From NCBI GenBank assembly GCA_017443595.1, contig JAFSYU010000020.1:1-64000 (forward strand): 64,000 bases of DNA. The letters are read 5' to 3'. Source of the stretch: Clostridia bacterium (GTDB taxonomy: Bacteria; Bacillota; Clostridia; Oscillospirales; CAG-272). Positions 18,762-35,745 of the stretch are shown here, one piece after another. The position numbers and the translations under genes are program-made. The first letter of the stretch is position 1; each line of letters starts with the position of its first letter. The notes under the pieces are model-generated. The model was not told the origin of the DNA. It saw nothing but the letters and a program-made list of their open reading frames with translations, and did not search any database.

Positions 18762-18930
18762 TGTTTTGTTGGGGGTTACCCACCCCTCAGGCGCGTACCG
18801 CGCCAACCCCCAAACCCCCTACCCCTCCGGAACCCCCATTGCTCACTACGTTCGCAACGGGGAACCCCTCGGTCCCTCCCACAGATCAAAGATCTGAGGG
18901 GGCTGCCGAGACAATCGGCTGAGGGTGTGT
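18762..18930 (-). repeat. Copy 1 (inverted orientation) of a mosaic GC-rich intergenic hairpin repeat
   Basis: Contains the reverse complement of the shared core GGGGTTCCCCGTTGCGAACGTAGTGAGCAATGGGGGTTCC, a CCCTCAGATC…CTGAGGG hairpin and a GGGGTGGG…CCCC module. Confidence 0.75.
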
Positions 18931-18980: not shown

Positions 18981-19607
18981 TCAATTATAATTTTGATCAA
19001 TATCTCTTTTTCTGCAAATAACCTCTTCATTTCCCGTTTGTTCGTTTTTTTGAAATGTTACTTGAAGATCAAGATAATTGATATTTGCATAATCTGCGTC
19101 ATCTGATCCGGTATAAATCCGAACTGTGTTTTCATCTGTAAAACCTTCTCTGTCATAAGGTTCCCAGAATATAGCGGAACCACTCGGGTTTTTTATTTGC
19201 ACTAACAGCTGACCGTCTACCTGCTCCGCGTCAAAGTATCTGATAAAAACCGGATCGCCCTCAGCTTCAACTTTACAAACACCGTCCTTGCTTTCAACGT
19301 ATTCTACTTTACAAATATTACCTAAATAAACGGTAATATTCTTGCAGGCCGCAAATTCCTTACTGTATTGATATTTCTGATTTATCATTTTCTCCTCTTT
19401 TCTTTCACCAAACAAAACGCCTATAGGTACAGATAAGATTTCGGCAATTACCGGAAACATCGTAACGTCTGGGTAACCGATCCCGCATTCCCATTTTGAA
19501 ATTGACTGTGCGGAAATACCGAGCTTTTCGGCAAGCGCAGTTTGTGTCAAACCTTTCTCTTTTCTTAATTTTGTAATGATATTGCAAAACTCATTTAGCT
19601 TATACAT
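18981..19607 (-). CDS. XRE-family HTH transcriptional regulator with an uncharacterised C-terminal domain
   Basis: 208 aa. The N-terminal HTH_3 is KGLTQTALAEKLGISAQSISKWECG. Confidence 0.7.
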   Translation of the reverse strand: MYKLNEFCNIITKLRKEKGLTQTALAEKLGISAQSISKWECGIGYPDVTMFPVIAEILSVPIGVLFGERKEEKMINQKYQYSKEFAACKNITVYLGNICKVEYVESKDGVCKVEAEGDPVFIRYFDAEQVDGQLLVQIKNPSGSAIFWEPYDREGFTDENTVRIYTGSDDADYANINYLDLQVTFQKNEQTGNEEVICRKRDIDQNYN

Positions 19608-19689: not shown

Positions 19690-20000
19690 TGTTGCTTTCA
19701 TCATAGAGTTGTGCCGTTAGCCCGATATTTTCCGGGGTTGTTTCGCGATTCCAGGGCGGGCGACCAATGGTCGCCCCTACGAGACGCGCGCTGCCCCCTC
19801 GATTTAAAATCGACGGGAGGGGACAGGGGGGTATGGGGGGGTTCTCGGGCGTAGCCCGAGCAAAGGGGTTCCCCGTAGCGAACATAGTGAGCAATGGGGG
19901 TTCCCGTGAGGGGTGGGAAACCACCCATTTTCGTCGGCTCCGCCGACACCTTTTTTTATTATTTCTTATTTATTCTTTATTATTTATATCGGTCTTCCCG
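19690..20000 (+). repeat. Copy 2 of the mosaic repeat family, with both GC-rich and AT-rich modules
   Basis: Modules are CGACCAATGGTCGCCCCTAC, the core GGGGTTCCCCGTAGCGAACATAGTGAGCAATGGGGGTTCCCG, GGGTGGGAAACCACCC, GTCGGCTCCGCCGAC and an AT-rich tail tttattatttcttatttattctttatt. Confidence 0.75.
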
Positions 20001-20050: not shown

Positions 20051-22174
20051 TTATATATTTTTTGTTATCGTAAGATTATTTTTGCCGTCTTTATATTCAT
20101 AGCGCATATCGTCCATGCTCTTTTTTACCATAAATATCCCGAGCCCTCCGATAGGTCTTTCTTCCGCGGACAGCGTTATATCGGGATCCGGCTTTGCAAG
20201 CGGATCGTACTGCTTGCCTTGATCTATAAACGTGATAAGCACACGGCGCGGATCGTCCGCAGTTTCAAATCGGATGGTGATCTGTCCTACCTCGGGCGCG
20301 TATGCGTAATGTGCGACGTTTACGAACAGCTCCTCTACCGCGACGTTGATCTGCATCTGAGTTTTAGCAGGACACTCAAGCGCCTCAAGCCGTTCGTTTA
20401 TAAAAGCAAGCGCGCTGTCAAGATTTTCGTCCGTTGCGTCGAGCGTAAGTTCCGGCGCTTCTTTTTTGCCTTCCGGTCCGGCGTATGAGAAGCCGAGCAT
20501 GGTTATATCGTCAAACTGCGGGGCTTCACCCACGAATTTTTCTATTGCACCGCGAACGTTGGATATAAGCGCGGCAGGTTTGGCGCCGGGATCTATATTC
20601 AACGCGTCGGTCAGGCGCTCTTCTCCGAACAGGATCGTTTCGGCGTTTGTGGCCTCGGTCACGCCGTCCGTATATACGAACAGACTGTCGCCCGGATGAA
20701 GCTCAAACTCGTGCTCCTTGAATCTCATGCCTTCCATCGTCGCCACGGCGGGTGAATGACGGTATTTTATAAGCTCAAACGAGCCGTCCGCGCGGCGGAG
20801 AGCGGGATGCTCGTGTCCGGCGTTTGCGGCAATGCCCTTGCCGGTCGTTATGTCAATAACGGCAAGCCATACCGTTACGAACAGTTCCGCCTCGTTTCCT
20901 TCACATAACTGATCGTTTACGTATTTCAGGATCTCGGCAGGGCCGCCCCCCATCATGGAGCGGTTTTTGATAAGCGTCTTTGCTATGACCATGAACAGCG
21001 CCGCGGGAACTCCCTTTCCGGAAACGTCCGCCATGACAAGGCCTATATGAGAATCGTCTATCATAAAGAAATCGTAGAAGTCGCCGCCGACTTCCTTCGC
21101 CGGCGTCATTGACGCGTAAAGATCAAACTCGGTGCGGTCCGGGAACGCGGGGAATATTCGCGGAAGCATATCCGCCTGGATCTGTGCGGCAACGTTCAGC
21201 TCCGCGCCTATACGCTCCTTTTCTGCCGTTATCGCCGTCAGGTTGACAATATATCTGTTAATATCTCTTTCCATCTGTTTTACGGAATCACACAGCGTCT
21301 CCACCTCGTCGCCGGTGCGGATATTCAGACGTGAGATAGCGGAATCTTCCTTTTGTTCGTCGCTTCGATCCTGTACAAACGAACGCGCTGCATCCGAAAG
21401 CATATTGATCGGTTTTATCAGCGCTATTACTATAGCGATAAGAATGACTGCTATCAATATGATAACGGCAATCCCCATAAATATAATAATACTGCGCAGA
21501 TAATCGGCACGGTCCTGCATTATTTCGTCCATTGATATGTCAACTCCGACAAGTGCAATTGACTTTCCGTTATCATCCCTCACCGGTTCCACGGAGGTAC
21601 ACAGCCAGCCGTACGTATCGTTAGTGATGAACGCGGGAATACCGTCTTCCGGATGTTCAACTTCTTTTGCCGGTCCGGAAACAGCATGTTTTGTCCCGAG
21701 CTGACACTGCTCCTCGGTATCATCCGCATCCATTATGTATGTGATCATATTTCCTTCAAGTATCTGGACGTACAGGTATTTGACCCCGTTGCTTTCTTTG
21801 ATATCGAAAAGAACGTCGAGCATCTCGTAATAGAGATCATCCTTGATCGCGTTGGCTTTCCGGTCATATTCATCCTTGTAAGAGACGTCGCTCCAGTATT
21901 TTGCGTCGTCATATTCACCTATCTGTTTGACAGCTTCGTAATAACGGAGAAGAGCTCCCGCGTCAAGTTGAGAAGCCGCTGTTTTTGCAAGGTTTGAAGA
22001 CAGTGTCTTATAGTGATTGTCCATCGTGGAGCTGTAAACTCTGTAACTTATGGTAACCGCGATGGTTGTCAGCACCAGTGCCGCGAAAATGATAACCGCG
22101 ACGGTTTTAAAACGAAGGGAAACAAGCCTGGATTTCTTTTTGTTTGACTTTGACATTGTATTATTTCCTTTCAA
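20051..22174 (-). CDS. Membrane sensor protein carrying a PP2C (SpoIIE/RsbU-type) phosphatase fused to a HATPase_c (RsbW-like anti-sigma kinase) domain
   Basis: 707 aa. A signal anchor and an extracytoplasmic domain of about 200 aa precede a second transmembrane helix. The PP2C motifs are GGDFYDFFMIDDSHIGLVMADVSGKG and DGVTEA. The C-terminal GHKL fold is VAVEELFVNVAHYAY…GGLGIFMVKKSMD. Confidence 0.7.
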   Translation of the reverse strand: MKGNNTMSKSNKKKSRLVSLRFKTVAVIIFAALVLTTIAVTISYRVYSSTMDNHYKTLSSNLAKTAASQLDAGALLRYYEAVKQIGEYDDAKYWSDVSYKDEYDRKANAIKDDLYYEMLDVLFDIKESNGVKYLYVQILEGNMITYIMDADDTEEQCQLGTKHAVSGPAKEVEHPEDGIPAFITNDTYGWLCTSVEPVRDDNGKSIALVGVDISMDEIMQDRADYLRSIIIFMGIAVIILIAVILIAIVIALIKPINMLSDAARSFVQDRSDEQKEDSAISRLNIRTGDEVETLCDSVKQMERDINRYIVNLTAITAEKERIGAELNVAAQIQADMLPRIFPAFPDRTEFDLYASMTPAKEVGGDFYDFFMIDDSHIGLVMADVSGKGVPAALFMVIAKTLIKNRSMMGGGPAEILKYVNDQLCEGNEAELFVTVWLAVIDITTGKGIAANAGHEHPALRRADGSFELIKYRHSPAVATMEGMRFKEHEFELHPGDSLFVYTDGVTEATNAETILFGEERLTDALNIDPGAKPAALISNVRGAIEKFVGEAPQFDDITMLGFSYAGPEGKKEAPELTLDATDENLDSALAFINERLEALECPAKTQMQINVAVEELFVNVAHYAYAPEVGQITIRFETADDPRRVLITFIDQGKQYDPLAKPDPDITLSAEERPIGGLGIFMVKKSMDDMRYEYKDGKNNLTITKNI

Positions 22175-23121
22175 ATCAGGATCAGATTTACGTAAGTATT
22201 GCGGAGCGGTGCGTTATACACAATGGAGGAAACGACGTCTTCTCCTTCGCTGCATAAATAATCCGGAAGGTATGCCGTAAGCTGCTTCACGGAGAATGTT
22301 TCACATAAAGCATATGCAACTCTTCTGATCTGCTGCAGAGAAAGATTTGTTTCGATCACCTTAAGCGAATCATTTTGAGGAGCGCACATGATGAAATATT
22401 TGCAGCCGTCAAGCTCGACGCTGAGTGTCCTGCCGCCGAAAAACGCGGTTTCGTTGATGCAGAAGCCCACGTGCCGGTCAGACCATTTGACGTACGGATG
22501 AGAGGAAAACGCACAATCGCGCATCCGGTTGTAATCCTTTGGCAAAACCGGAGAAAAAACAACGTCTTCTTTTATTTCCGGGCATACGGTGACAAGCTTA
22601 AGAATTGCGTCCTGCTCAAAGCCAAGTGTTTTATAATACGGTATAATGTCCCGGCGAACGGGTTTGCCGAAAAGTGCGCAGTTGTTGTTTCTTGCATATT
22701 CCTCCACGTAATGAAACAGCGCGGTGTAGTATCCGTTTTTTCGGTATTCGGGTAAGGATCCGCCTGCGTACAGAAATTTTGCGTTTAGTGCCTCAGCCCC
22801 GTCGACAAATGAAGCGTCAAACCAATGCAGCATGCTTACAGGCTGACCGTCGACCGCATAAACCGCTGTCGTTATATGACCGAAATTTTCACGGTAAAAA
22901 AACCTGACGTAGTCTTCATCGTCGCCGAAGCAAACCTTCCAAATTCTGCACAGCGATGCTATATCTTTCTCTTCTGCAGTGCGTATTCCGTTGTCCAATT
23001 TATCAAACCTCCACGGTGAGTGTATTGAATCCGGCATAGCGCCGGTAGAAAAAGCGTTTTGATTTTGCTTTGACCATTTGTATTCCGAGCGCGGCAAGAC
23101 TTTCCTCGTCCTCGTAATCAC
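22171..23121 (-). CDS. GNAT-fold acyltransferase-like protein. The start is uncertain because the listed N-terminus overlaps the upstream gene by 118 nt.
   Basis: 316 aa as listed. A GNAT-like N-terminus begins around IRTAEEKDIASLCRIW. ATGA overlap with the downstream PP2C gene indicates coupling. Confidence 0.4.
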   Translation of the reverse strand: MITRTRKVLPRSEYKWSKQNQNAFSTGAMPDSIHSPWRFDKLDNGIRTAEEKDIASLCRIWKVCFGDDEDYVRFFYRENFGHITTAVYAVDGQPVSMLHWFDASFVDGAEALNAKFLYAGGSLPEYRKNGYYTALFHYVEEYARNNNCALFGKPVRRDIIPYYKTLGFEQDAILKLVTVCPEIKEDVVFSPVLPKDYNRMRDCAFSSHPYVKWSDRHVGFCINETAFFGGRTLSVELDGCKYFIMCAPQNDSLKVIETNLSLQQIRRVAYALCETFSVKQLTAYLPDYLCSEGEDVVSSIVYNAPLRNTYVNLILI

Positions 23122-24760
23122 GTCCGGTCTTCATAGCGAACGGGTTGAAGTCTACGGCGTTGTCACGCAGATGAAGCACTGCAGTGCCGTCATTTTCGAT
23201 ACACAGCGTAAGCTGTATATACTCGTCACCCTTTTTACGGAATGCGTTGTCTATTATTGCCTGACATACTTCCTCAACACATAAGGTAATATAATATACC
23301 TTCTTAGGATCAGCATCGTTTTCTTCACAGAAGCCTTCGGCTTTGCTCAAAAGATCGGAGATATCCGAGGAATTGGCGTCAAGCAGATATGAGAAGACCG
23401 CGTCTGTTTCTTTTCGCTTTTTGATATGGCAAACGGGGACCCAGATCGCAAGTGTTCCAAGCTCCGCCGCCAAAAAAACGAACCAGAACCATTTAATTCC
23501 AAACGATGAGAATATTACCGCAAATCCGGCAAAGCAGACGAAGGTGCGAAGCTGATTTATCAAAAATACTATTTTTTCTCTGCCTATAGTTTGAAAGCAC
23601 GAGCTCCACGTAATGCTCAATCCGGCGGGTATAACCGACAGACAGAACAGCCGCACGGCGAACGCTCCGTCGGTTACGGCATCGCCCGTAAGTCCGAACA
23701 GCGCGCAGACAGACGGCGCAAATACCGCGAAAAGCACGGATATTACCCCGCCGCATATCACACCGATACCGATGGCGAGAATCATTACGCGTTTGATCGC
23801 ATCCTTATTGTGTTCCGCATAAAACGTTCCGGACAGAGGCTGAGCCGTATCACCGAGAGCCAGATATAAAGCCAGCGCAAAATATGAAACGTTTTGAACG
23901 ACGTTCATCTGCGCCAAAGCGCTCTCGCCTCCGAGACGCAGTAATATATTATTTACGATAAGAAGCGCGGCAAACTGACCGATATAGCCGAAGGAAGAAG
24001 ACATTCCCGTTTTAAGCACGCTGAATATCAGCTTTATATCGGGTTTTGAGAATTTGAAGCGCAGTATCGCCCATTTGCGCGTAAAGTGCATTGAAAAAAT
24101 AACGATACCTATCGCTTTTCCTAATACCGTCGCGATTATCGCACCGCGCACGTCAAGCTTGAAAACGAGTATCAGGACAGCGCTTGCGGCGACGTCTGAC
24201 AGATATCCTGTCAGATATCCCGCGCTTGCGAGCTTTTCGTTATCGTCACAGCGTATGCAGTAATATAATAAAAAATATACGAAGGTCAGAGGCGCTCCCC
24301 AGAACATGATCTGCAGATAATCTTTTGTATAATTCCACAACTCCGTGCCCTCGGTCCCGGCGCCGAGCCCTTTAAGTATATACGGCATAAACAATGAGCC
24401 GAGCACGGCTATCATGACGCTGATAATCAAAGCAACTATAAGCATCTGTGAGAAGACTTTGATCCCGTCCTTCGCCCTACCCTTGCCTATCGCTCTCGTA
24501 TAATGCACGGAAGCACCGATGGCTATCCCGATGTCAAGAACGTTGAATATCATATAGACCGGCGCGACAAGCGACATTGTAGCAAGTCCCGTTTTTCCTA
24601 TGCGGATACCGATGAAGAGGGCGTCGGCAATATCTCCGAGTGCAAGTCCGAGCGACGAAAGAAGCGTCGGCCAAAGCAGCCGCCGGAACATACTGTCGGT
24701 AAACGATTTACTATTTATTCCATTTAATGCGGTATCGCTCATATCGCTCTTCCTTCCCAT
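23003..24760 (-). CDS. MATE/MOP-superfamily membrane protein fused to a C-terminal HATPase_c (anti-sigma-kinase-like) domain
   Basis: 585 aa, probably starting at M7 (24742) with ATGA coupling to the upstream gene. About 12 transmembrane helices of MATE type are followed by ITLCVEEVCQAIIDNAF…IQLTLCIENDGTAVLHLRDNAVDFNPF, a GHKL-like segment. Confidence 0.5.
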   Translation of the reverse strand: MGRKSDMSDTALNGINSKSFTDSMFRRLLWPTLLSSLGLALGDIADALFIGIRIGKTGLATMSLVAPVYMIFNVLDIGIAIGASVHYTRAIGKGRAKDGIKVFSQMLIVALIISVMIAVLGSLFMPYILKGLGAGTEGTELWNYTKDYLQIMFWGAPLTFVYFLLYYCIRCDDNEKLASAGYLTGYLSDVAASAVLILVFKLDVRGAIIATVLGKAIGIVIFSMHFTRKWAILRFKFSKPDIKLIFSVLKTGMSSSFGYIGQFAALLIVNNILLRLGGESALAQMNVVQNVSYFALALYLALGDTAQPLSGTFYAEHNKDAIKRVMILAIGIGVICGGVISVLFAVFAPSVCALFGLTGDAVTDGAFAVRLFCLSVIPAGLSITWSSCFQTIGREKIVFLINQLRTFVCFAGFAVIFSSFGIKWFWFVFLAAELGTLAIWVPVCHIKKRKETDAVFSYLLDANSSDISDLLSKAEGFCEENDADPKKVYYITLCVEEVCQAIIDNAFRKKGDEYIQLTLCIENDGTAVLHLRDNAVDFNPFAMKTGRDYEDEESLAALGIQMVKAKSKRFFYRRYAGFNTLTVEV

Positions 24761-25626
24761 ATGCGGATAAGTTCTTTAGGTCTGCGCAGCAGTTTGTGCG
24801 TTCGTAACCCCGGCAGTCCCATATCTTCCTCCGAATCAACGGTTTTGACTTCATCAGGCAAAAAGCGGTACAGTTCCCGTTTTATAAAACAGTCGCACGA
24901 CCTGTTTAAAACCTTGCAAAAACTGACGTCAAATATCTCGGGTATAACAAAAACACCTGCTGCGTACGCAACGTCTTTGTCATCCGCTTTGAAGAGTGCG
25001 CCCCACAGCTGCAGCTGTGAAAAATGACACAGCGCTTTTTCGGCGGCTGCGGTATCGGCAAGATCGTCGCCCGAGCGTCCTTCCGTCCATTTGCGGTTGA
25101 TGATACGCGCCCGATCAACGTTTTCATCGCATAACGGTTCCACAGACCATGATAAAGCCATGGAACGTCCGAGATTTACCTGATGACGCAAATTTTTGAA
25201 TTCTTTTCCGGCAAGCGCGATCTGTTCGTCTTTATCGTACAAATACGGATAATCGTCACGACAGGCGGTAAATCTGAACCTGCCGGAATAGACACGCTCC
25301 AAAAACAACATGTCCTCGTCGGTCACAAAAGAAAAGACCGGTGAACATTTTGTCAAAAGCGTGTCGATCAGCTGTTTTTTTCCGGTTTCCGTGCCGCACG
25401 GAAAAAGATACACATCTTCACCGCGTACACCGTGCCTGATAAGGAAAGCATCGTCAGATATGTATATTTCATAACCCTCGTGCTCTTGCCATACAAACAG
25501 AGAAGCAAACGTGTAAACGTACATAGTGCTGCGCGATTTTTTACGGATAAACTCTATCTTTTCCATTTGAGAAAACGTAATAGGCGTAAACCGGATCGGC
25601 GTATGGTTACCGAGATTTAATGGCAT
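24739..25626 (-). CDS. DUF2156 (LPG-synthase C-terminal / MprF-like aminoacyl-tRNA transferase fold) domain protein
   Basis: 295 aa. The assignment is by similarity to the DUF2156 family of standalone GNAT-fold aminoacyl-tRNA-dependent transferases. It is moderate-confidence and from memory. Confidence 0.4.
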   Translation of the reverse strand: MPLNLGNHTPIRFTPITFSQMEKIEFIRKKSRSTMYVYTFASLFVWQEHEGYEIYISDDAFLIRHGVRGEDVYLFPCGTETGKKQLIDTLLTKCSPVFSFVTDEDMLFLERVYSGRFRFTACRDDYPYLYDKDEQIALAGKEFKNLRHQVNLGRSMALSWSVEPLCDENVDRARIINRKWTEGRSGDDLADTAAAEKALCHFSQLQLWGALFKADDKDVAYAAGVFVIPEIFDVSFCKVLNRSCDCFIKRELYRFLPDEVKTVDSEEDMGLPGLRTHKLLRRPKELIRIWEGRAI

Positions 25627-25682
25627 AATTTAATTCTCTAAACTTAACAAAGATGATTGGCGTGTTCACAGAGACAAAAACA

Positions 25683-25979
25683 TCATTCAATACTTAAAAT
25701 ATCGACAAATCCCGTAACGTCAAAGATCTCCATGATCTCGGGTTTTACGTTCGTTATCTTCATCTCTCCCTGCTTGTTCATCACCTTCTGTGCGGCAAGA
25801 AGCACGCGCAGTCCGGCGGAAGATATGTAATCGAGTTTTTCAAAATCAAACGTGAGCCCGCTTATACCGTTGACAGATGTGCGAAGCTCTGCTTCAAGCT
25901 GCGGAGAAGTTGTGGTGTCAAGACGTCCTTCAAGTACGATCGTAAGTTTATCTCCGTTCTGATTTTTGGTGATAGTCAT
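25683..25979 (-). CDS. STAS-domain anti-sigma-factor antagonist (SpoIIAA/RsbV-like)
   Basis: 98 aa, with the signature LDYISSAGLRVLL and a conserved phospho-Ser context. Confidence 0.8.
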   Translation of the reverse strand: MTITKNQNGDKLTIVLEGRLDTTTSPQLEAELRTSVNGISGLTFDFEKLDYISSAGLRVLLAAQKVMNKQGEMKITNVKPEIMEIFDVTGFVDILSIE

Positions 25980-26107: not shown

Positions 26108-26335
26108 TTATTTTAAGGTTTTTAAGTTGAATGCGGTTTCGGTTTCTTTTTTCTTTTTCAGCTGTGATCCGGTCATTTCATTGATACTGCTGGTATCCTC
26201 GTTGCTCTCGGTTGACGCGTCCTCGTATCCCAGGGTTACGCCTTTCTTTGAGTTAACCATCGCGCGGCCTCCCGCCACTTCGTTCAACAGGTCGTCGCTC
26301 AGTTCTGCATTTTTAAGATCTTTTTTGTCAGGCAT
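26108..26335 (-). CDS. Double-glycine-leader precursor peptide (paralog 1) with a hydrophilic Ser/Thr/Asp/Glu/Lys-rich core
   Basis: 75 aa. The leader MPDKKDLKNAELSDDLLNEVAGG fits the LSxxELxxVxGG double-glycine motif. A strong ribosome-binding site is present. The 52-aa core contains no Cys. Confidence 0.6.
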   Translation of the reverse strand: MPDKKDLKNAELSDDLLNEVAGGRAMVNSKKGVTLGYEDASTESNEDTSSINEMTGSQLKKKKETETAFNLKTLK

Positions 26336-26372: not shown

Positions 26373-26600
26373 TTATTTCAGGATCCTAACGTGTAACACG
26401 TTTTCGGTTTCTTTTTTCTTTTTCAGCTGTGATCCGGTCGCTTCATTGATACTGCCGGTATCCTCGCTGCTCTCGGTCGACGCGTCCTCGTATCCCAGGG
26501 TTACGCCTTTCTTTGAGTTCACGGTCGCGCGGCCTCCCGCCGCTCCGTTCAACTGATCGTCGCTCAGTTCTTTTGATCTGTTTTTTTTCTCATCATCCAT
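26373..26600 (-). CDS. Double-glycine-leader precursor peptide (paralog 2, a tandem duplicate)
   Basis: 75 aa. The leader is ELSDDQLNGAAGG, and the core is 80-90% identical to paralog 1. The duplication is visible at the DNA level. Confidence 0.6.
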   Translation of the reverse strand: MDDEKKNRSKELSDDQLNGAAGGRATVNSKKGVTLGYEDASTESSEDTGSINEATGSQLKKKKETENVLHVRILK

Positions 26601-26675: not shown

Positions 26676-26984
26676 TCACAGCAGCGGAATGATGCCGTTA
26701 TCTTTCATTTCTTTAAGACAATCCCGGCAATAGCCGTATTCAAGTTCCGAGGAATATTTCTCGGCGTCACAGCGTTTGCATCTTAATATGGCGTCTTTAA
26801 CCTGACGGTGATATCCGCCGCTGATCTTATCAAGCGCCTCTGCCGGCAGTTCGACGCCTTCCTCGTCTGCAAACCTGATAAACTCTTCTTTGGTCTTACA
26901 TTCTTTTGCCTTTTTCTTCTGCTCGTCGGTAAGGGAATCCAGAACACCCTTGAGGGCTTCATTCAGCTTATCGTCCATGATCAC
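26676..26984 (-). CDS. Nif11-type (N11P) leader-peptide precursor with a CxxC-x16-CxxC core
   Basis: 102 aa. The leader MIMDDKLNEALKGVLDSLTDEQ…EEFIRFADEEGVELPAEALDKISGG resembles the Nif11 leader family and ends in GG. The 45-aa core is YHRQVKDAILRCKRCDAEKYSSELEYGYCRDCLKEMKDNGIIPLL. A strong GAGGAG ribosome-binding site is present. Confidence 0.55.
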   Translation of the reverse strand: MIMDDKLNEALKGVLDSLTDEQKKKAKECKTKEEFIRFADEEGVELPAEALDKISGGYHRQVKDAILRCKRCDAEKYSSELEYGYCRDCLKEMKDNGIIPLL

Positions 26985-27051: not shown

Positions 27052-27531
27052 TTATCCGAGCGCCGTACGCAGAGCGGACAACGCTTTATTGTGCCGTATT
27101 TTTACCATTCCGTAACTGATACCGAGCGTCTCAGCGATCTCTGTCAGCGGCATACGGTCGTAGTAATGAAGAACTATAACGTCTGTAAGCTCATCCGGCA
27201 GGTCCTCAAGCGCCCCGGCAAGCTCACGAAGCATCTCGGCGTTTGTGACCTCGTCTTCGGGTGAGCTGTCGCCCGGCACGTCCTCCGGGATCTCTTCCGT
27301 AGGACGCGCTCTGCGGCAGTAATCTATAACGGTGTTTTTAGTGATCGTATATATCCACGTTCCGACCGACGCTTTTGACGGATCGTAGTCGTCCGCGCAG
27401 CTGAACGCTTTTACAAAAACGTCTTCGCAAAGATCTTCAACGTCACTTTCGTTATAGATACGGGAACGTATGTAGGACGTTACCTTCCCGCGATATTCGG
27501 TATACAACCGTTCTTTTTCATCCGCCGTCAT
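27052..27531 (-). CDS. ECF-type sigma-70 family RNA polymerase sigma factor
   Basis: 159 aa. Region 2 (DLCEDVFVKAF…TWIYTITKNTVIDYCRR) and region 4 (LTEIAETLGISYGMVKIRHNKALSALR) are both recognisable. Confidence 0.8.
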   Translation of the reverse strand: MTADEKERLYTEYRGKVTSYIRSRIYNESDVEDLCEDVFVKAFSCADDYDPSKASVGTWIYTITKNTVIDYCRRARPTEEIPEDVPGDSSPEDEVTNAEMLRELAGALEDLPDELTDVIVLHYYDRMPLTEIAETLGISYGMVKIRHNKALSALRTALG

Positions 27532-27734
27532 ACCGGGGATCCTCCCGGCATTTTTTTCTTTCCGGCTATTTCAGATATCTGTTGAACACCTGCCGCGGAG
27601 ACCGAGTCAAGCTCGTCGTCTGTAAGCTCGCGCTCTTCAACGCGGCGGTGAACGCCGTCTATCACCTTCTGCAGCCGGAGATCGTTTTCAAAGTGCTGAT
27701 AATCAAAGAGGTTTTGTAATTTTGTTTTTGTCAC
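27528..27734 (-). CDS. Small hypothetical protein translationally coupled to the ECF sigma gene
   Basis: 68 aa with a GTG start and a GGAGG ribosome-binding site. Its stop overlaps the sigma-factor start. It carries a leader-like ELTDDELDSVSAAG segment. Confidence 0.4.
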   Translation of the reverse strand: MTKTKLQNLFDYQHFENDLRLQKVIDGVHRRVEERELTDDELDSVSAAGVQQISEIAGKKKMPGGSPV

Positions 27735-27800
27735 TCTTGATCCTCCTTTGCCGCTTTGTCTTACGCCTGTTTATACGCAGAAAAATTCGTTATGGCAGTG

Positions 27801-27866
27801 TTTTTTTCAAATTTTTTTGATTTTTTTCGGATTTTTTCGTTTTTTTCAGTTTTTTTCGTCTTTTTG
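27801..27866. promoter_or_regulatory. Array of seven helically phased T/A-tracts, predicted intrinsically curved DNA, upstream of the sigma/peptide transcription unit
   Basis: T5-7 tracts begin at 27801, 27812, 27821, 27832, 27841, 27851 and 27861, a period of about 10 bp. The array overlaps the last codons of the ABC gene. Confidence 0.5.
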
Positions 27867-30050
27867 AACCGTATCGAGTCTCTGACGCGCTACAAGTTCC
27901 GCAAAGAAGCCTTCCTTTGCTATAAGATCGTCATACGTTCCGTCCTCAACTATTTTGCCGTGATCGAGCACGATTATGCGGTCGCACTGGCGTATAGTTG
28001 AAAGGCGGTGCGCTATGACTATACGCGTGCATTTCATCCTGTCAAGCGCGTCTGAGACCTGCTTCTGAGTTATATTGTCAAGAGCGCTCGTCGCCTCGTC
28101 AAACATAAGTATCCTCGGTTTTGGGGCAACTGCGCGAGCGATAAAGAGCCTCTGCCGCTGTCCGCCGGATATACCGCCCTGTCCCTCTGAGATAAGCGTG
28201 TTCATCCCCATGGGCATAGCGCGTATATCGTCAGCCATACCGGCTATCTCCGCCGCCTCCCACGCGTCGTCAAGCGTCAGCCACGGCGCGGAGATCGTGA
28301 TATTGGAGAAAATATCTCCGGTAAACAGTTTTCCGCTCTGCATTACCGCACCGATCTTACGGCGCAGTGATTTTAAATCGAGCTTTTTGATATCGTGTCC
28401 GTCGTAATACACGGCTCCCTTCTGCGGTGTTTCAAAGCCGAGCATTATCCTCATAAGCGTTGACTTGCCGCAGCCTGTCTTTCCGACTATGGCAACGTAC
28501 TGGCCGGGACGGATCTTCAAAGACAGATCGTCGATGACCGGCGGCATATCGTCGGTATAACGGAAAGTTATATTATTCAGCTCTATCCCTCCGGAAAGAC
28601 GCGTGACCACCTGTTTGTCAAGCGAGATCTCAGGCTCCGCCTCCATTATCGGCTTTGCCATTTCAAGCGCCGGTTTTATCTGCGCAAGTCCCGTTGCGAT
28701 ACCGGCGAGCGCGATAAACGCGCTGTTGACCATACCGTAAGCTGAGTTGAACGCGTAATACTCCGCTACCGAGACGTTTGTCTTTACCGCGATGAAAAAC
28801 ATTGCTATGGTGCCGACAAGCGAAACGGCGAGAGTAATGACGGATGAGATCTTCAGAAACAGCGGCGGATCGTAAAGGAGCTTTGCGTCCTTTGCGTACA
28901 TTTTGCCCCATTTGGCAAACGCTCTCTGCTCCGCGCCCGAAAGCTTTATTTTCTGTATACCGGATATAAGCTGATAACTCATACCCAATTCCTTGCTTTC
29001 GTGCTCCATGCTCTGACGCGTTATCTTCATCTGTATGAAGATCCTGATAACGGTGATCAAAAGCGTTGCAAAAGTGACTATGAGCGCGGGCGCGACGAGC
29101 GCGGGCGCGTATTTGAATATCTGGAAAATATATACTATGGAGAATACCGACGCCATTCCCGTAGTCAGAAACATACTTGCTATCTGGCTGCAAAGTCCGT
29201 TTATGTAACCGGCGCGGTTAGAAAGCTCACCGGCGCTGTAATCCTTGAAGAAATCCGGCGGCAGCGAAAGGATCCGCATCATGGTCGCCGCTTCTACCGA
29301 AAGATTCAGCTTTGTTCCTATGCGCGACGTCAGAAGCGCGCGGACGGACGTAAAGAGAAGAATGCTCAGCGACGCGCTTATCATAAATACAGCCGTGCCG
29401 ATAAGCGCCGAAGCGCTGCCCGACGTTATAACGTACGAAAACAGATAATTGTTGAGCCGCGGTATCAGCATACCTATGCCGGTCACCGCAAGCATTGCAA
29501 GTATAAGCGGAATGATATCCGAAAACGATATCTGCTGGATTATATATTTAAGTAAGCTTCCGACCGTCATTTTTGAGATCGGGAACGGTTTATAGAAAGC
29601 TATTGCTTCCTTTTCTATAATATCCTGATTTTTGCGGTTGATCCGCACCGTTTTTCCGAGCTTCCTGTCATAAAAGCTGTAGCCGTTCAGTCCGGTGGGT
29701 ATCAGAGCGACGACGCTGCCGTCGTCCCGGCGCGTGCCAAGCATCGCTCCTATCGCGTCGCGGTACCAGCCCTTTTCAAGTTCTACGGAGCGGCGCATGA
29801 ATCCCGCGGGACGCAGCAGATATTCAAGCACCTCGTTCATATCAGTGATCGCATCCGGCACTTCCTGCGCTGCAACGTGATAATATTTTAAAATATCTCC
29901 TATCGCGTCAGCCGTGATCTGTCTGTCGTCATTGAGCGATTTGCTCATCCGGCGGCCCATAACGGCGTCCGCCATCTGCTCAAACGACTCTTCAAACACC
30001 GCCTGATCCGCGTCTTTTCTTTTGCGTATCTGTTCATCAAACCAGCCCAT
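27846..30050 (-). CDS. NHLM-type bacteriocin ABC transporter, ATP-binding/permease subunit, with a degenerate non-catalytic N-terminal domain
   Basis: 734 aa. An N-terminal domain of about 160 aa lacking the catalytic Cys is followed by a six-helix permease and an ABC ATPase with Walker A GKTGCGKST and signature LSGGQRQR. Confidence 0.7.
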   Translation of the reverse strand: MGWFDEQIRKRKDADQAVFEESFEQMADAVMGRRMSKSLNDDRQITADAIGDILKYYHVAAQEVPDAITDMNEVLEYLLRPAGFMRRSVELEKGWYRDAIGAMLGTRRDDGSVVALIPTGLNGYSFYDRKLGKTVRINRKNQDIIEKEAIAFYKPFPISKMTVGSLLKYIIQQISFSDIIPLILAMLAVTGIGMLIPRLNNYLFSYVITSGSASALIGTAVFMISASLSILLFTSVRALLTSRIGTKLNLSVEAATMMRILSLPPDFFKDYSAGELSNRAGYINGLCSQIASMFLTTGMASVFSIVYIFQIFKYAPALVAPALIVTFATLLITVIRIFIQMKITRQSMEHESKELGMSYQLISGIQKIKLSGAEQRAFAKWGKMYAKDAKLLYDPPLFLKISSVITLAVSLVGTIAMFFIAVKTNVSVAEYYAFNSAYGMVNSAFIALAGIATGLAQIKPALEMAKPIMEAEPEISLDKQVVTRLSGGIELNNITFRYTDDMPPVIDDLSLKIRPGQYVAIVGKTGCGKSTLMRIMLGFETPQKGAVYYDGHDIKKLDLKSLRRKIGAVMQSGKLFTGDIFSNITISAPWLTLDDAWEAAEIAGMADDIRAMPMGMNTLISEGQGGISGGQRQRLFIARAVAPKPRILMFDEATSALDNITQKQVSDALDRMKCTRIVIAHRLSTIRQCDRIIVLDHGKIVEDGTYDDLIAKEGFFAELVARQRLDTVQKDEKN

Positions 30051-30062
30051 TACGTCACCCCC

Positions 30063-32258
30063 TTATTCCGACGTCACGAGCCTTTTGTACGCGCCGTCAA
30101 GAGCCATAAGCTGTTCGTGCGTACCGCGCTCCACGACCTTGCCGTGATCTAAAACGACTATCTCGTCACAGTCACGTATAGTTGAGAGCCTGTGAGCTAT
30201 AACGATGCAGGTTATGCCGCGGTTCTTAATGGAATTCACCACTTCGTACTCTGTTTTGGCGTCAAGCGCGCTTGTCGCCTCGTCAAGTATGATTACAGTG
30301 GGATCCTGCGCAAGAACGCGCGCGATCTCTATACGCTGACGCTGACCGCCGGAGAAATCCTTGCCGCCTTCCGTCAGTACGTACTGGTATCCGCCCTCAC
30401 GCTGTATTATATCCTCATGTATCTGAGCGTCGCGCGCGGCAAGAACTACCTCAAAATCTTCTATTGAATTGTCCCACATTTTTATATTGTTGGATATCGT
30501 GTCTTCAAAAAGGATGATATCCTGATCCACAACGGCTACCGAACCGGTGAACACGCTGCGGTCTATCCGGGAGATCGTTTTGCCGTCAAAGAGTATTTCC
30601 CCACTCCACGGCTGATAAAGTCCGGATATGAGTTTTGATAACGTGGATTTTCCGCAGCCGGACATTCCGACGAACGCCACGCGCTGCCCCTGTTTAAGGT
30701 CAAGGCTGAAATCCTCTATGAGCGGCGCTTCAAGCCGCGAATATCCGAACGTCACGTTCTTCATCTGAAGCGAACCGGAAAGCTTGTCAAAGCCGTCTTC
30801 TTCTCCGTCTGCGCCGTGCTCCTTACTGTTGTGTGCAAATACGGGATCCTCCGGATATTCCATAACGTCTTCTATACGCTCCATTGACGTTCTCATCTCC
30901 TGCATCGTCTGTCCGGCGGAGATAAGATCTGCCGCGGGAGCTATGAACGAGGCGAGAAATCCCTGGAACGCGAATATCATACCGGGTGTAAACTTGCCGA
31001 TCATCACAAGCCATACGCCGAGGATAAGGACCGCCGTGTTCATTATGCCGGAGATCAAAGACGGGATCATTCCGAGATACTGATTTATACGTTCAAAACG
31101 TACTTTCTGCGTATTGACAGACGCCTGGTATCCGGACCATTTTTCAAAATAGCCGTTTTCCGCGCCGCTTGCCTTTATAGTCTCTATCATTTCCACGCCG
31201 GATACGGTGGCGGCAACGAGCTTACCGCTGTCGCGCATCATAACGCGCGTGATGTTCACACGTTTTTTAGATATGTACCGCGAGATCAAAAGCTGAAAGA
31301 TAACGGACGCGACGCCTACGAGCGTGAGTATCCATGAATATCTGATCATGACCGCGAGATAGAAGATCATCATCACCGTGTTCAGTGCGAGCGGTGCGAG
31401 AGTGTTCACTATCTCACCGGCGATATCGGCGTTCAGTTCTTTGCGCTGCTGTATATCGCCCGCCATACGCTGTGAGAAAAACTCCATGGGCAGACGGAGC
31501 ACTTTCCACATATACGTGCTGTTTCCGACGACCGCCATTTTGCCGTCGAGCTTGAGAGAGTATATCGCGTTTATCCAGTTCGCAATAAGCTGAATTACCG
31601 CTATTATGCTCAGACCGACAAAAAACGGTATGAACCAGCCCGGCTGATTCTGCGTCAGAAGTTCGTCTAAGAAAACGCGCGAAAATCCGGCTGATACTAT
31701 TCCTACGAGAGTTGAGATCACGGAGGTTATTATAACAAACGCCACAGCGCCGCCGGCGCCGCGCAGTCTCTTTTTCGTAAAGCTCATTATGCGCTTAGGC
31801 TCTCCGCCCGGCTCAAACTCTTCTCCGGGTTCTATCATAAGGCAGATGCCGGTAAAGCTCTCGTCAAATTTTTCAAGCGTTACGGTATAATCTCCCCTTG
31901 CCGGATCGTTCAAATACACCTTGTTGCCGCGGAATCCGTCGCATACTACAAAGTGGTTGAATTCCCAGTGGATAATGCACGGGAACGTTCCTTTTGCACG
32001 GAGCGTCTCCGGCTCAAAACGGTATCCCTTAGCCGTAAAGCCGTAGTTTCTCGCCGCTTTGAGGATATTGCCCGCCTTGCTGCCGTCACGCGAGACTCCG
32101 CAGTCACGTCTGACCTGTTCAAGCGGCACCCATTTGTTGTAATACGCCATGACCATACACAGGCAGGCGGCGCCGCATTCAAGCGCCTCCATCTGCATGA
32201 TCACAGGTACTTTAGCCCTGCCTTTTGTGACAGGCTGATTTATATTCTTTTTGCTCAT
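30063..32258 (-). CDS. Peptidase-containing ABC transporter (PCAT) with C39 double-glycine peptidase, permease and ATPase domains
   Basis: 731 aa. The C39 motif is QMEALECGAACLCMVMAYY. A permease and an ABC ATPase (GMSGCGKST, LSGGQRQR) follow. Confidence 0.85.
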   Translation of the reverse strand: MSKKNINQPVTKGRAKVPVIMQMEALECGAACLCMVMAYYNKWVPLEQVRRDCGVSRDGSKAGNILKAARNYGFTAKGYRFEPETLRAKGTFPCIIHWEFNHFVVCDGFRGNKVYLNDPARGDYTVTLEKFDESFTGICLMIEPGEEFEPGGEPKRIMSFTKKRLRGAGGAVAFVIITSVISTLVGIVSAGFSRVFLDELLTQNQPGWFIPFFVGLSIIAVIQLIANWINAIYSLKLDGKMAVVGNSTYMWKVLRLPMEFFSQRMAGDIQQRKELNADIAGEIVNTLAPLALNTVMMIFYLAVMIRYSWILTLVGVASVIFQLLISRYISKKRVNITRVMMRDSGKLVAATVSGVEMIETIKASGAENGYFEKWSGYQASVNTQKVRFERINQYLGMIPSLISGIMNTAVLILGVWLVMIGKFTPGMIFAFQGFLASFIAPAADLISAGQTMQEMRTSMERIEDVMEYPEDPVFAHNSKEHGADGEEDGFDKLSGSLQMKNVTFGYSRLEAPLIEDFSLDLKQGQRVAFVGMSGCGKSTLSKLISGLYQPWSGEILFDGKTISRIDRSVFTGSVAVVDQDIILFEDTISNNIKMWDNSIEDFEVVLAARDAQIHEDIIQREGGYQYVLTEGGKDFSGGQRQRIEIARVLAQDPTVIILDEATSALDAKTEYEVVNSIKNRGITCIVIAHRLSTIRDCDEIVVLDHGKVVERGTHEQLMALDGAYKRLVTSE

Positions 32259-32271
32259 AATATATAAACCG

Positions 32272-32532
32272 TCAATTTATTACGTACGTGATAGGAGCGA
32301 CCTCTTTTACGCTGCCGTCGGCATCTTTTACCTCAACTCTGCCGAAAATGCTCCACGTCAGCATACCGATAAGCAGTATCAAAAGCGCAAGAAGCACGAT
32401 CCATACAGAAGGAGAAGTGACTCGGATATAGTCGTTAAGCGACTCCGGGCTTGTTACCTGTTTGATGCTCTTTTCTCTGAAAATGCTGTTTTTTGACTGA
32501 TCTTCCGACATTTTATATCCCTCCCAAATCAT
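32272..32532 (-). pseudogene. HlyD-family NHLM secretion protein reduced to its N-terminal membrane-anchor fragment
   Basis: 86 aa (…SPESLNDYIRVTSPSVWIVLLALLILLIGMLTWSIFGRV…) matches only the N-terminal ~80 aa of periplasmic adaptor proteins that normally run to about 400 aa. Confidence 0.5.
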
Positions 32533-33217
32533 TTTTTACAAAAGCGTAGAATTTTGCGCGTATATCCTTTGCCTGATCACGGCGTAAAAGATACGTTTTA
32601 CCGTCTCTGCTCATACAGTCTTTATATGTCATTCTTGATATATGGTTCATATTAAGCGTGACGCCCTTTTTGATCTGAAGAAAGGAATCGTCAAGCAGCT
32701 CGTCTATCTCTTTAAACGGTTTCCTTATGGAATACACGGTATTGTTGCTGCAGGTGATCTCCGTGTTGTGGCCGTGTCCCTCCACGCGTATGATCTCATC
32801 CTGATAAAGTACGTTGATGACCCGGTCTATCCGTACCGTCAGCGTATGACGCGGTTCCGTCTTTGTCTGCAGGCGGCGGAAGACCTCAACTATGTCTTCC
32901 TGCGACACGGGCTTGACAAGATAATGCACGGCGTCTACGGAAAAAGCATCCACCGCGTGTTCCCGGCTGCTTGTGATAAAAGCCACCGGCGTGTGCGGAC
33001 AGACAGCCTTCATCTGTTTGGCGATCTCTATACCGTTTTCCTCTTTCATGTAAACGTCGCAAAGGAGCAGATCGTAAACGGCGCCGTCCCCGGCTGCTTT
33101 CAGCAGGTCCCTGCCTTCCGAAAACCGGTCAATACGGTAATTGCCGGAAATATTGAAGATCATTTCCTGCAGATTGTATACTTCTTCATTGTCATCATTC
33201 AAAATGGCAATATGCAA
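32513..33217 (-). CDS. LytTR-family response regulator (REC + LytTR DNA-binding domain)
   Basis: 234 aa. The receiver domain has the LLLCDVYM phospho-acceptor-Asp context, and a C-terminal LytTR domain follows. No cognate histidine kinase lies in the window. Confidence 0.8.
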   Translation of the reverse strand: MHIAILNDDNEEVYNLQEMIFNISGNYRIDRFSEGRDLLKAAGDGAVYDLLLCDVYMKEENGIEIAKQMKAVCPHTPVAFITSSREHAVDAFSVDAVHYLVKPVSQEDIVEVFRRLQTKTEPRHTLTVRIDRVINVLYQDEIIRVEGHGHNTEITCSNNTVYSIRKPFKEIDELLDDSFLQIKKGVTLNMNHISRMTYKDCMSRDGKTYLLRRDQAKDIRAKFYAFVKNDLGGI

Positions 33218-34730: not shown

Positions 34731-34910
34731 TCAGTTCTCCTTAACTGTCCATTCCTCTAATTCTTGTTTTGTGATATTCATTTTGGTAATAAGACCGTTA
34801 TAACTTATGTCGTATTGTTCTTTACTTATTGCGCCGTGTTCTTTGAGCGTGTCAAGTGTGTGTATCTGTTTTAAAAACAGGAATTTCTTTTGTTCATCCG
34901 TCATATCCAT
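34731..34910 (-). CDS. Small SHOCT-like protein, a 57-aa ORF below the 60-aa cutoff of the supplied ORF track
   Basis: MDMTDEQKKFLFLKQIHTLDTLKEHGAISKEQYDISYNGLITKMNITKQELEEWTVKEN. The LKEHGAISKEQYD segment is a SHOCT-like motif. Its stop lies 2 nt before the GH43 start. Confidence 0.3.
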   Translation of the reverse strand: MDMTDEQKKFLFLKQIHTLDTLKEHGAISKEQYDISYNGLITKMNITKQELEEWTVKEN

Positions 34911-35745
34911 CGTACCCGTCTAAATAATTGTGGTATTCGCCGCCTGATTTATACCCCGGGAACGTGTCAAGACAAACGGCGTGTATGCTGTTGAAAATGC
35001 TTTTTTCCACGTTCGGATCGTTCTCGCACAGTTTTTTTATAAGCAGTTTTACTTCAAGCCGCTTTGATTCGCCCACGTCAACGGCGCTTCTCTCCGTCAT
35101 TTTACACGCGCAGCGTATGAAATCGAGCCCGTTGTACTTAGCCCATGAGATTATATCGTCCTCGCGCACGCAGTAAAGCGGGCGAATAAGCTCCATTCCC
35201 TCAAAATTGGTGCTGTGAAGCTTCGGCAGCATAGCCTGGAGCTGCGAGCCGTAGAGCATTGCCATAACGGTAGTTTCAATAACGTCGTTCAAATGGTGTC
35301 CGAGCGCTATTTTGTTGCACCCGAGCTCTTTTGCCTTTGCGTAAAGATGGCCGCGGCGCATACGCGCGCAGAGATAACACGGCGTTTTGTCGACGGAATC
35401 CGCAACTGCAAATATATCGCTTTCAAATATCCTTGCCGGGATATTCAGTTTTTTTGCGTTATTTTCTATCTTTTTTCTGTTTGCTTCACTGTAACCGGGA
35501 TCCATTATAAGAAATTCAAGCTCAAACGGTATCTCGCTGTATCTTTGCAGCATCTGTAAAAGCTTTGCCATAAGCATGGAATCCTTACCGCCGGAGATGC
35601 AGGCGGCAATTTTGTCTTTGGGCTTTATAAGCTCGTATCTTTTAACCGCTTCAACGAACGGATTCCAGAGCTGTTTTCTGTATTTTTTGTTTATGCTGCG
35701 CTCGGCTTGCTGATAAAATTCAAGCTCTTTACCCATTTTTAACAC
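34894..35745 (-). CDS. ttcA: tRNA 2-thiocytidine(32) synthetase TtcA
   Basis: 283 aa with the PP-loop SGGKDS and the CxxC motifs of the TtcA family. Confidence 0.8.
   Translation of the reverse strand: MLKMGKELEFYQQAERSINKKYRKQLWNPFVEAVKRYELIKPKDKIAACISGGKDSMLMAKLLQMLQRYSEIPFELEFLIMDPGYSEANRKKIENNAKKLNIPARIFESDIFAVADSVDKTPCYLCARMRRGHLYAKAKELGCNKIALGHHLNDVIETTVMAMLYGSQLQAMLPKLHSTNFEGMELIRPLYCVREDDIISWAKYNGLDFIRCACKMTERSAVDVGESKRLEVKLLIKKLCENDPNVEKSIFNSIHAVCLDTFPGYKSGGEYHNYLDGYDGYDG

Follow-up and report, generated by a model that had tools for sequence, protein, structure and literature searches.

Positions 26,676 to 26,984 of a 64,000-nucleotide stretch from a Clostridia bacterium (contig JAFSYU010000020.1; the whole stretch is hereafter called the window) hold a small open reading frame that raises a simple question: what kind of peptide precursor does it encode, and how would its product be processed and exported? 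An earlier note, made from the letters alone, had described a Nif11/NHLM-type leader ending in a double glycine (GG), a core with four cysteines and an adjacent NHLM-type transporter, with no maturase apparent. Our answer, which we hold with moderate confidence, is that the gene encodes a divergent Nif11-type precursor that would be exported by a peptidase-containing ABC transporter (PCAT) and most likely crosslinked by a maturase encoded elsewhere in the genome.

The open reading frame lies at exactly 26676-26984, on the minus strand, and its listed GTG start gives 102 residues. Two codons downstream of the GTG, an ATG at 26978 is preceded 9 nt upstream by a GAGGAG ribosome-binding site and reproduces the N-termini of the homologues (MDDKLN/MDEKLN). 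For these two reasons we assumed a product of 100 residues (26676..26978, minus strand, 100 codons plus stop; protein P0001), the GTG at 26984 being probably unused. The full product reads MDDKLNEALKGVLDSLTDEQKKKAKECKTKEEFIRFADEEGVELPAEALDKISGG and then YHRQVKDAILRCKRCDAEKYSSELEYGYCRDCLKEMKDNGIIPLL. The GG stands at residues 54-55 counted from the ATG and 56-57 from the GTG, and the leader is accordingly 55 or 57 residues long; the latter count is the source of the figure of about 57 in the earlier note, whose 45-residue core was found as described (residues 56-100). The leader (residues 1-55, 26814..26978, minus strand) is helical and acidic (isoelectric point 4.6), and it ends in ELPAEALDKISGG. 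In an AlphaFold2 (AF2) model its helices fall within residues 3-52, with a predicted local distance difference test score (pLDDT) of about 70-78, and a low-confidence linker follows at residues 51-60. An identical protein occurs on 14 contigs from several samples and stands at NCBI as a hypothetical protein from a "Clostridia bacterium" metagenome-assembled genome (MAG). We conclude that a small gene for a ribosomal peptide precursor with a GG leader does exist here.

Next came the question of the family to which this leader belongs. A phmmer search with the precursor against 1.84 billion representative sequences returned 602 clusters at E<=1e-3, that is, a family of at least 602 cluster representatives; those of its members whose genomes bear names came from rumen or gut MAGs. 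An alignment of 28 members (A1) showed ten invariant positions (L16, D18, Q20, C27, G41, E43, L44, E47, G54 and G55) and nothing alignable after the GG. Spacing was just as strict: counted from the start of the LTDEQ motif, the GG ended exactly 40 residues on in 160 of the 162 relatives parsed. Leaders of the family measured 55-61 residues, and among the 162 they ended mostly in AGG (115) or SGG (37). What follows the leader was hypervariable: the 162 cores were unrelated to each other and ran from 1 to 92 residues; 60 ended in a C-terminal Cys, 34 had no Cys at all and 16 carried a CxxC-x8-25-Cxx[C/H] pattern. We noticed that the C-terminal Cys of the 60 often sits in a ...[SG]GC ending after a basic stretch. 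We also noticed that Cys27 of the leader, the fifth Cys of the protein (KAKxCK), is kept in 157 of the 162 relatives, which is unusual for a leader peptide. Judged from these alignments, a fixed leader with a variable tail marks out a family of leader-plus-variable-core precursors. Genomes held several members each, some of them orphans with no pump nearby and others in tandem multi-copies. For the comparison of loci we used 29 loci of species-representative genomes (designated below by L numbers), searched by tblastn with the window proteins; all came from rumen or gut MAGs, assigned to the Oscillospiraceae, Clostridia, Lachnospiraceae, Eubacteriaceae, Erysipelotrichaceae, Atopobiaceae or Coriobacteriaceae. 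Searched with the family profile, PDB sequences yielded no match below E=0.2.

The relation to Nif11 leaders turned out to be indirect. The earlier note had proposed a search with the TIGR03798 model as a check, and as a direct match its assignment failed: the window protein scored 13.4 bits (E=0.069) against a cutoff of 32.3, and 15.7 bits (E=0.019) against PF07862, whose gathering score is 23.8. None of the 28 close relatives reached the TIGR03798 cutoff either, weak matches at E<0.1 being seen for two of them with TIGR03798 (best E=0.029) and for seven with PF07862 (best E=0.0029). The sub-threshold matches of the window protein were in register, residues 21-51 aligning with profile positions 20-50. 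We then considered divergent members from other rumen MAGs (L030, L035 and L036), whose leader has the form ...LTDEQKKKAEAAxSPEELLAIAKEAGYELSxEQLEAVAGG. These scored 47-57 bits against the family leader profile, built from the phmmer matches of this precursor family (on which the window protein scored 94 bits), and they retained the 40-residue spacing from LTDEQ to GG. Five of nine tested exceeded the PF07862 gathering score (25.5-33 bits), and one of the nine exceeded the TIGR03798 cutoff (33.3 bits), their matches spanning profile positions 20-50 as in the window protein. Because these divergent intermediates matched both the curated models and the family profile in one register, we accepted homology to Nif11, and the proposed leader match stood in this transitive sense. 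We used this intermediate-sequence test instead of a profile of prochlorosins only, which was set aside as too narrow: the leader family, compared by hhalign with 117 prochlorosin leaders, reached a probability of 14% (P=0.0019) with a prochlorosin profile of Neff 1.3. The end of the window leader (ELPAEALDKISGG), followed by a variable core, also has the ELSDEELEAVAGG-type Gly-Gly motif by which Nif11 leaders were defined (Haft 2010, PMC2887384). On our reading of the sequences, the leader is a divergent branch of the Nif11-type leader superfamily, missed by the curated models and linked to it only transitively.

How would such a precursor leave the cell? Two ABC transporter genes lie upstream of it on the same strand. 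ABC1 (30063..32258, minus strand) is a PCAT that scored 950 bits against TIGR03796 (cutoff 853); its Peptidase_C39 domain gave 118 bits over profile positions 2-132 of 133, with the motifs Q22/C28 (QMEALECGAAC), H101 (NHFVV) and D117 (NDP) present. ABC2 (27846..30050, minus strand) is a permease/ATPase subunit that scored 716.9 bits against TIGR03797 (cutoff 709.4), and the Pfam scan found no C39 peptidase domain in it. The third component of the TIGR03794/03796/03797 cassette is represented by the first ~44 positions of its model only: a short HlyD-like protein of 79-86 residues (32272..32532, minus strand) matched TIGR03794 with 37 bits over positions 2-44 of 421, the N-terminal cytoplasmic and transmembrane part. 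Since the same short form is conserved in L012, L013, L022 and L034, we did not take it for a pseudogene. A reduced HlyD of about 80 residues, an N-terminus plus one transmembrane segment, fits a Gram-positive envelope, which has no outer membrane to bridge.

Synteny supported the pairing. The cluster is headed by a LytTR-type response regulator (32513..33217, minus strand; Response_reg and LytTR domains) that is conserved in L012 and, more weakly, in L013 and L015. A recurring order, LytTR, short HlyD, ABC1, ABC2, optionally orf68 (a small gene described below) with a sigma factor of the extracytoplasmic function (ECF) type, one to four family precursors and a STAS gene, was found whole or in part in five other MAG loci (L012, L013, L014, L022 and L034), with ABC proteins 71-83% identical to those of the window; LytTR, orf68-sigma and STAS each occur in some of the five. 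The pairing with an adjacent NHLM-type PCAT that had been claimed earlier was thus borne out by curated cutoffs and by synteny alike. As for the site of cleavage, the C39 domain LahT150 needs only the 13 C-terminal residues of its leader (Bobeica 2019, PMC6363468). From what is known of the family, the C39 domain of ABC1 would recognise the last ~13 leader residues (ELPAEALDKISGG) and make its cut after Gly55, and the 45-residue core would then leave the cell through the ABC1/ABC2 pair. Nif11-type leaders together with this ABC cassette are not new in Gram-positive bacteria (PMC2887384, PMC6363468), the cassette having been tied to NHLP and Nif11 precursors in, among others, the Gram-positives Desulfitobacterium and Eggerthella (Haft 2010, PMC2887384). 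The description of the source as a Gram-positive cellulosomal organism agreed both with its name, "Clostridia bacterium", and with a dockerin protein of 1196 residues at 55705-59295 on the plus strand, which has a Listeria-Bacteroides repeat, SHIRT domains and a C-terminal type I dockerin.

We then turned to the cargo. The core (residues 56-100, 26679..26813, minus strand; YHRQVKDAILRCKRCDAEKYSSELEYGYCRDCLKEMKDNGIIPLL) has a mass of about 5368 Da unmodified and is hydrophilic and near neutral (grand average of hydropathy -0.73, charge +0.8). Its four cysteines, at residues 67, 70, 84 and 87, form a CxxC-x13-CxxC pattern and not the CxxC-x16-CxxC given in the earlier note. In the AF2 model the core reached a pLDDT of 87-92, the first CxxC sitting on a beta-hairpin (64-75) and the second at the beginning of a helix (85-93). 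Weak sequence or fold matches, none significant, always involved C4 zinc sites (those of type Z S14, HypA, MsrB and FmdE). The core is therefore predicted, on the strength of the model, to fold as a small hairpin-plus-helix knuckle that brings both CxxC pairs together in a treble-clef or zinc-ribbon layout. It shares with the C4 treble-clef and zinc-ribbon knuckles of type Z S14, HypA and FmdE the two CxxC pairs and, in the model, the hairpin and helix start; it differs in that the domain follows a secretion leader, and its metal site is a putative one. Its sole homologue is P0002, from an 839-bp contig, with an identity of 84% over the leader and 57% over the core; it retains all four Cys together with SSEL, GYC and KEMKD-GI. 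Conservation, which had been put forward as a check for both features, thus held for the GG throughout the family and for the four cysteines in that single homologue, a thin basis, the other cores of the family being hypervariable.

The most delicate question was whether these cysteines are modified. In the 64 kb window we found no radical SAM, LanM/B/C or YcaO gene, by Pfam scans of the neighbouring genes and by tblastn with the radical SAM proteins of three relatives. Candidate maturases further along, a ThiF protein (35729-36445) and a PP-loop ATPase (34894-35745), were rejected: they lie beyond a GH43 gene, itself without a counterpart in any of the related loci, and they would rather resemble housekeeping tRNA-modification enzymes. 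The claim that no maturase is apparent thus held for the window. For the family it is misleading, since in related clusters the precursors are directly followed by a radical SAM/SPASM gene. In L012, L014 and L022, a radical SAM gene of 463-479 codons lies between the precursors and STAS (L012:10479-11870, L014:2816-4207 and L022:10285-11724; further examples are L040-L119). These proteins carry a CNYNCxHC motif and a Cx2Cx5Cx3C SPASM motif, and their N-terminal region, read by eye, looks like a leader-binding RiPP recognition element (RRE; RiPP stands for peptides that are made on the ribosome and then modified post-translationally). By tblastn, the gene was present in 9 of the 29 genome loci (L012, L014, L017, L018, L020, L022, L023, L024 and L025). 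Its nearest solved relatives were the thioether synthase SkfB (E=7.5e-15), PqqE and CteB, and it fitted no curated NCBIfam equivalog, the best being ScmF with 91 bits (cutoff 400), while TIGR04103 (nif11-class maturase 3) gave 75 (cutoff 725).

To see what accompanies this enzyme we relied on a metagenome scan with its alignment (A2), which gave 150 relatives, 80 of them kept. Precursors of the family type or of the canonical Nif11 type lay within 6 kb of the radical SAM gene at 46 of the 80 loci; none of the 80 had a precursor with a leader near-identical to that of the window. Among the 95 unique cores within this distance, 32 had a CxxC-x8-30-CxxC pattern and only 5 lacked Cys, the corresponding figures for the family at large (n=162) being 16 with CxxC-x8-25-Cxx[C/H] and 34 without Cys. 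Many of these C4 cores were textbook CPxCG...CxxCG ribbons, L103 having five in tandem. Some of the radical SAM loci came from human-gut metagenome contigs, and the cores there carry many CxxC motifs. Because C4 cores are enriched and Cys-free cores depleted beside the radical SAM gene, C4 cores like that of the window are typical neighbours of this enzyme. Pump and enzyme are also separable within one genome, since the MAG RGIG6940 carries a pump locus without radical SAM (L034) and, separately, a locus with a precursor and radical SAM (L023).

A PCAT-exported peptide is the most likely product; it may be crosslinked in trans by a radical SAM enzyme or be folded solely by metal or disulfides. 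We favour modification in trans on three grounds: the leader is kept whole, though its end would suffice for the pump, C4 cores and others that contain Cys gather around radical SAM, and split arrangements of pump and radical SAM exist. The full 55-residue leader would then serve a leader-binding maturase encoded elsewhere, and the cysteines would be crosslinked before export. If radical SAM is absent from the genome, the product would instead be an unmodified peptide folded by metal or disulfides. The earlier note had left a choice between an unmodified disulfide peptide and the substrate of a novel enzyme. Both options are still live, and a candidate for the enzyme already exists in the relatives.

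Two further peptides bear on this choice. Directly downstream of the precursor, two paralogous genes encode double-glycine peptides of 75 residues (26373..26600 and 26108..26335, both minus strand). The first has a 23-residue leader (…ELSDDQLNGAAGG) and a hydrophilic core of 52 residues; the leader of the second ends in …ELSDDLLNEVAGG. Their cores are very hydrophilic, rich in Lys, Glu, Ser and Thr, and the last 14 residues of the leader (ELSDDLLNEVAGG) match the end of the family leader profile. A homologue search returned five near-identical relatives only, and the gene was present in 2 or 3 copies among different assemblies of the same locus. Since a C39 domain needs the last 13 leader residues, which the 75-residue peptides share, the pump can plausibly serve both peptide types; the two peptides, bearing the short motif only, would use the same pump and are its probable co-substrates.

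A possibility was that the four-Cys peptide, too, is simply cut after the GG and exported unmodified, like a class II double-glycine bacteriocin or a signalling peptide, its cysteines binding metal or forming two disulfides outside the cell. We regard this as a strong rival, though the less likely reading. It accounts directly for the lack of a maturase in the 64 kb and in each of the four assemblies of the locus, and in the window the radical SAM position of L012, L014 and L022 is taken by the 75-residue peptides; L013 and L034 likewise have no radical SAM in the locus, and L015 shows its decay beside an intact precursor. The prediction for the core is a C4 knuckle that folds on its own, and with 34 of 162 family cores free of Cys, cysteine chemistry is not needed by every member. 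However, the whole 55-residue leader is kept, at 84% identity to P0002, whereas a PCAT needs about 13 residues and the 75-residue peptides manage with 23. Moreover, Cys-containing and C4 cores are enriched beside radical SAM in the relatives, and RGIG6940 shows this enzyme encoded away from the transporter. Disulfides would also be unlikely to be stable in the reducing rumen, and the hydropathy and charge of the core are unlike those of typical membrane-active class II bacteriocins. Compared with these bacteriocins and with unmodified PCAT cargos (PCAT1 of Clostridium thermocellum), the locus shares the GG site with a C39 ABC transporter, the lack of a tailoring enzyme in the locus, a LytTR regulator nearby and the co-located peptides with a classic short GG leader. 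It differs in its leader (55 residues against 15-30), in its hydrophilic, near-neutral core, which is neither cationic nor hydrophobic, in the lack of a recognisable immunity-like gene among the neighbours of the precursor, and in a two-subunit NHLM-type pair in place of a single PCAT.

Several observations weigh against crosslinking in trans of a Nif11-type precursor. The direct Nif11 tests fell below their cutoffs with TIGR03798 and PF07862, and the comparison with prochlorosins alone reached just 14% probability. The 64 kb window holds none of the radical SAM, LanM/B/C or YcaO genes, and four independent assemblies of the locus were all maturase-free. In L015, two short radical SAM fragments (L015:6999-7211) directly follow an intact precursor; this looks like decay of the maturase, which would mean that precursors can outlast the enzyme. 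For the core, high AF2 confidence is based on just two sequences, and the copy in the window of the promoter motif described below has a mismatch and was not significant alone (46 of 100 shuffles). Finally, cleavage, export and modification would all be steps predicted from sequence.

The same decay in L015 raised the question of whether the gene is an evolutionary remnant, a precursor orphaned by loss of its maturase, perhaps still transcribed and with no functional mature product. Radical SAM is absent here and fragmentary there, and the core has only one known homologue, on the 839-bp contig. Yet the reading frame is intact with a good ribosome-binding site, the identical protein recurs in independent samples, and the transporter genes are intact and exceed curated equivalog cutoffs. 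In addition, the retention of the four Cys, SSEL, GYC and KEMKD-GI at 57% core identity to P0002 points to constraint. We therefore consider a remnant improbable.

A last question was prompted by the gene next to the precursor, which encodes an ECF-type sigma-70 factor (27052..27531, minus strand; TIGR02937 106 bits, Sigma70_r2 and r4) and ends 73 nt upstream. Could the protein be an intracellular zinc-finger regulator, for example a partner of this sigma factor, that is not exported and whose Nif11-like N-terminal domain is structural? Besides the proximity of the two genes, C4 knuckles are typical of intracellular proteins, and the Nif11 domain is found in proteins other than precursors as well (Haft 2010, PMC2887384). 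However, a regulator family would conserve its C-terminal domain, and here the sequences after the GG are hypervariable and 1-92 residues long, while the GG itself is invariant at fixed spacing. Precursors also occur as tandem multi-copies and as orphans, L022 and L034 have transporter and precursors without a sigma gene, and direct reading of the protein showed no HxxxCxxC anti-sigma motif. All this makes an intracellular regulator highly improbable, and export of the core by the PCAT is kept as the preferred reading.

The comparison with described systems can now be drawn. With the N11P precursors (prochlorosin ProcA; LahA1-9 of Lachnospiraceae C6A11) the family shares a long helical leader ending in ELxDExLxxVxGG, hypervariable cores, many paralogues per genome, some far from enzyme or pump, and the TIGR03796/TIGR03797 cassette, which is also found in Gram-positive anaerobes. 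It differs in leader length (55-61 residues against about 65-70), in the replacement of the first ~19 Nif11 profile positions by MDENK..LNEALKGxWDS, in its conserved leader Cys and in scoring below both curated cutoffs. No LanM or cyclodehydratase is present here, the partner in the relatives being a radical SAM/SPASM protein, and the cores of the family are often 50-90 residues long and resemble folded mini-proteins. The system thus works like the N11P/prochlorosin/LahA paradigm, as a distant member of that superfamily, and is not a lanthipeptide system. With the radical SAM/SPASM thioether RiPPs (the sactipeptide SkfA/SkfB; the ranthipeptides SCIFF/CteB and PapB) and the Nif11-class maturase of TIGR04103 the relatives share a radical SAM protein with an RRE-like region, CxxxCxxC and SPASM located after Cys-containing precursors, and nearest to SkfB, PqqE and CteB among solved structures. 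They differ in that their enzyme fits no curated equivalog and in that its candidate substrates include zinc-ribbon-like CPxCG...CxxCG cores and Cys-ending cores of 60-90 residues, unlike known sacti- and ranthipeptide cores. At the locus of the window itself the enzyme is absent, and these RiPPs have their maturase in the cluster.

Regulation of the cluster was considered next. The sigma gene is found upstream of the precursors in L012, L013, L014, L015 and L017. Its start is overlapped by the stop codon of orf68 (27528..27734, minus strand), which encodes 68 residues: a conserved part of 49 ending in RELTDDELDSVSAAG (RELSDDELDxVxAAG among the homologues) and a tail of some 13-19 that varies. 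Its homologues, near L012:8347-8532, L013:6723-6908 and L014:9467-9646, always lie just upstream of sigma, and scans with TIGR and Pfam models gave orf68 no family match. It resembles a leader-plus-core precursor in which AAG takes the place of the GG expected at a PCAT site, and it may act as an anti-sigma factor or else as a pseudo-substrate that resists cleavage and links pump and sigma. Because just 73 nt and no predicted terminator separate sigma from the precursor, orf68, sigma, the precursor and the 75-residue peptides may form one operon.

An ECF-promoter-like motif, CTGCCATAACGAATTTTTCTGCGTATAAA (27770..27798, minus strand), lies 36 nt upstream of orf68, with one mismatch to CTGCCRY-N14-SGTATCAA. 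Over 315 kb of related loci, counted without redundancy, the latter had 16 exact copies where about 0.004 would be expected; they were found in L005-L028, all on the precursor strand. Nine of them lay 30-113 nt upstream of family precursors, orphans included, and two upstream of the orf68-sigma pair; the motif also precedes some short-leader GG peptides. We take CTGCCRY-N14-SGTATCAA to resemble ECF promoters, with an AAC-like -35 element and a CGT -10 element. A generic promoter and terminator scan around the precursor did no better than shuffles and found no minus-strand terminator. The precursor would be transcribed together with orf68 and the ECF sigma gene from the ECF-type promoter upstream of orf68.

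On the other side of the precursors, a STAS anti-sigma-factor antagonist (25683..25979, minus strand; TIGR00377 67 bits) follows directly, and STAS is also found beside precursors in L012, L014, L022, L027 and L034. Together with a MATE transporter that carries an anti-sigma-kinase-like HATPase_c_2 domain (MatE::HATPase_c_2, 23003-24760) and a SpoIIE phosphatase likewise joined to HATPase_c_2 (20051-22174) it makes up a partner-switching set at 20051-25979 on the minus strand. L014, L022 and L034 have kept this set next to their clusters, and it may belong to the same island. Further out, we noticed an inverted repeat of 48 nt (18822-18869 and 19864-19911, 90% complementary) around an HTH_3 regulator gene (18981-19607), which may be a repeat element. 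A scan of the window with Rfam found no family.

What, then, does this locus add? Precursors that pair a long double-glycine leader with an NHLM-type pump are familiar, and in this respect the basic reading is ordinary. Outside existing knowledge stands the branch itself, with its at least 602 clusters, a leader missed by both curated Nif11 models and a partner radical SAM/SPASM protein in no curated family, as do its cores, which include classic zinc-ribbon motifs and whole small domains. Literature searches (Nif11 with rumen, Ruminococc or radical SAM) returned no description of this leader branch, of its radical SAM protein or of zinc-ribbon-like cores as substrates. A broader picture, which we offer tentatively and think rather doubtful as a whole, is that rumen and gut Clostridia have a RiPP-like system not described before. 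In it, a divergent Nif11 leader would deliver C4 zinc-ribbon-like mini-domains and Cys-ending cores of 50-90 residues to a new SkfB/CteB-like radical SAM/SPASM enzyme, giving stapled "zinc-ribbon mimics" or exported metal-binding mini-proteins. The scattered precursors would form a regulon of the ECF sigma factor through CTGCCRY-N14-SGTATCAA, and orf68 would couple the state of the PCAT to transcription, as FlgM export does for sigma-28. The ECF-type motif could serve as a simple search key for every orphan precursor in these genomes. If the radical SAM enzyme does crosslink such cores, they would represent a new class of RiPP scaffold, from an ecosystem in which peptide antagonism affects feed efficiency and methane output.

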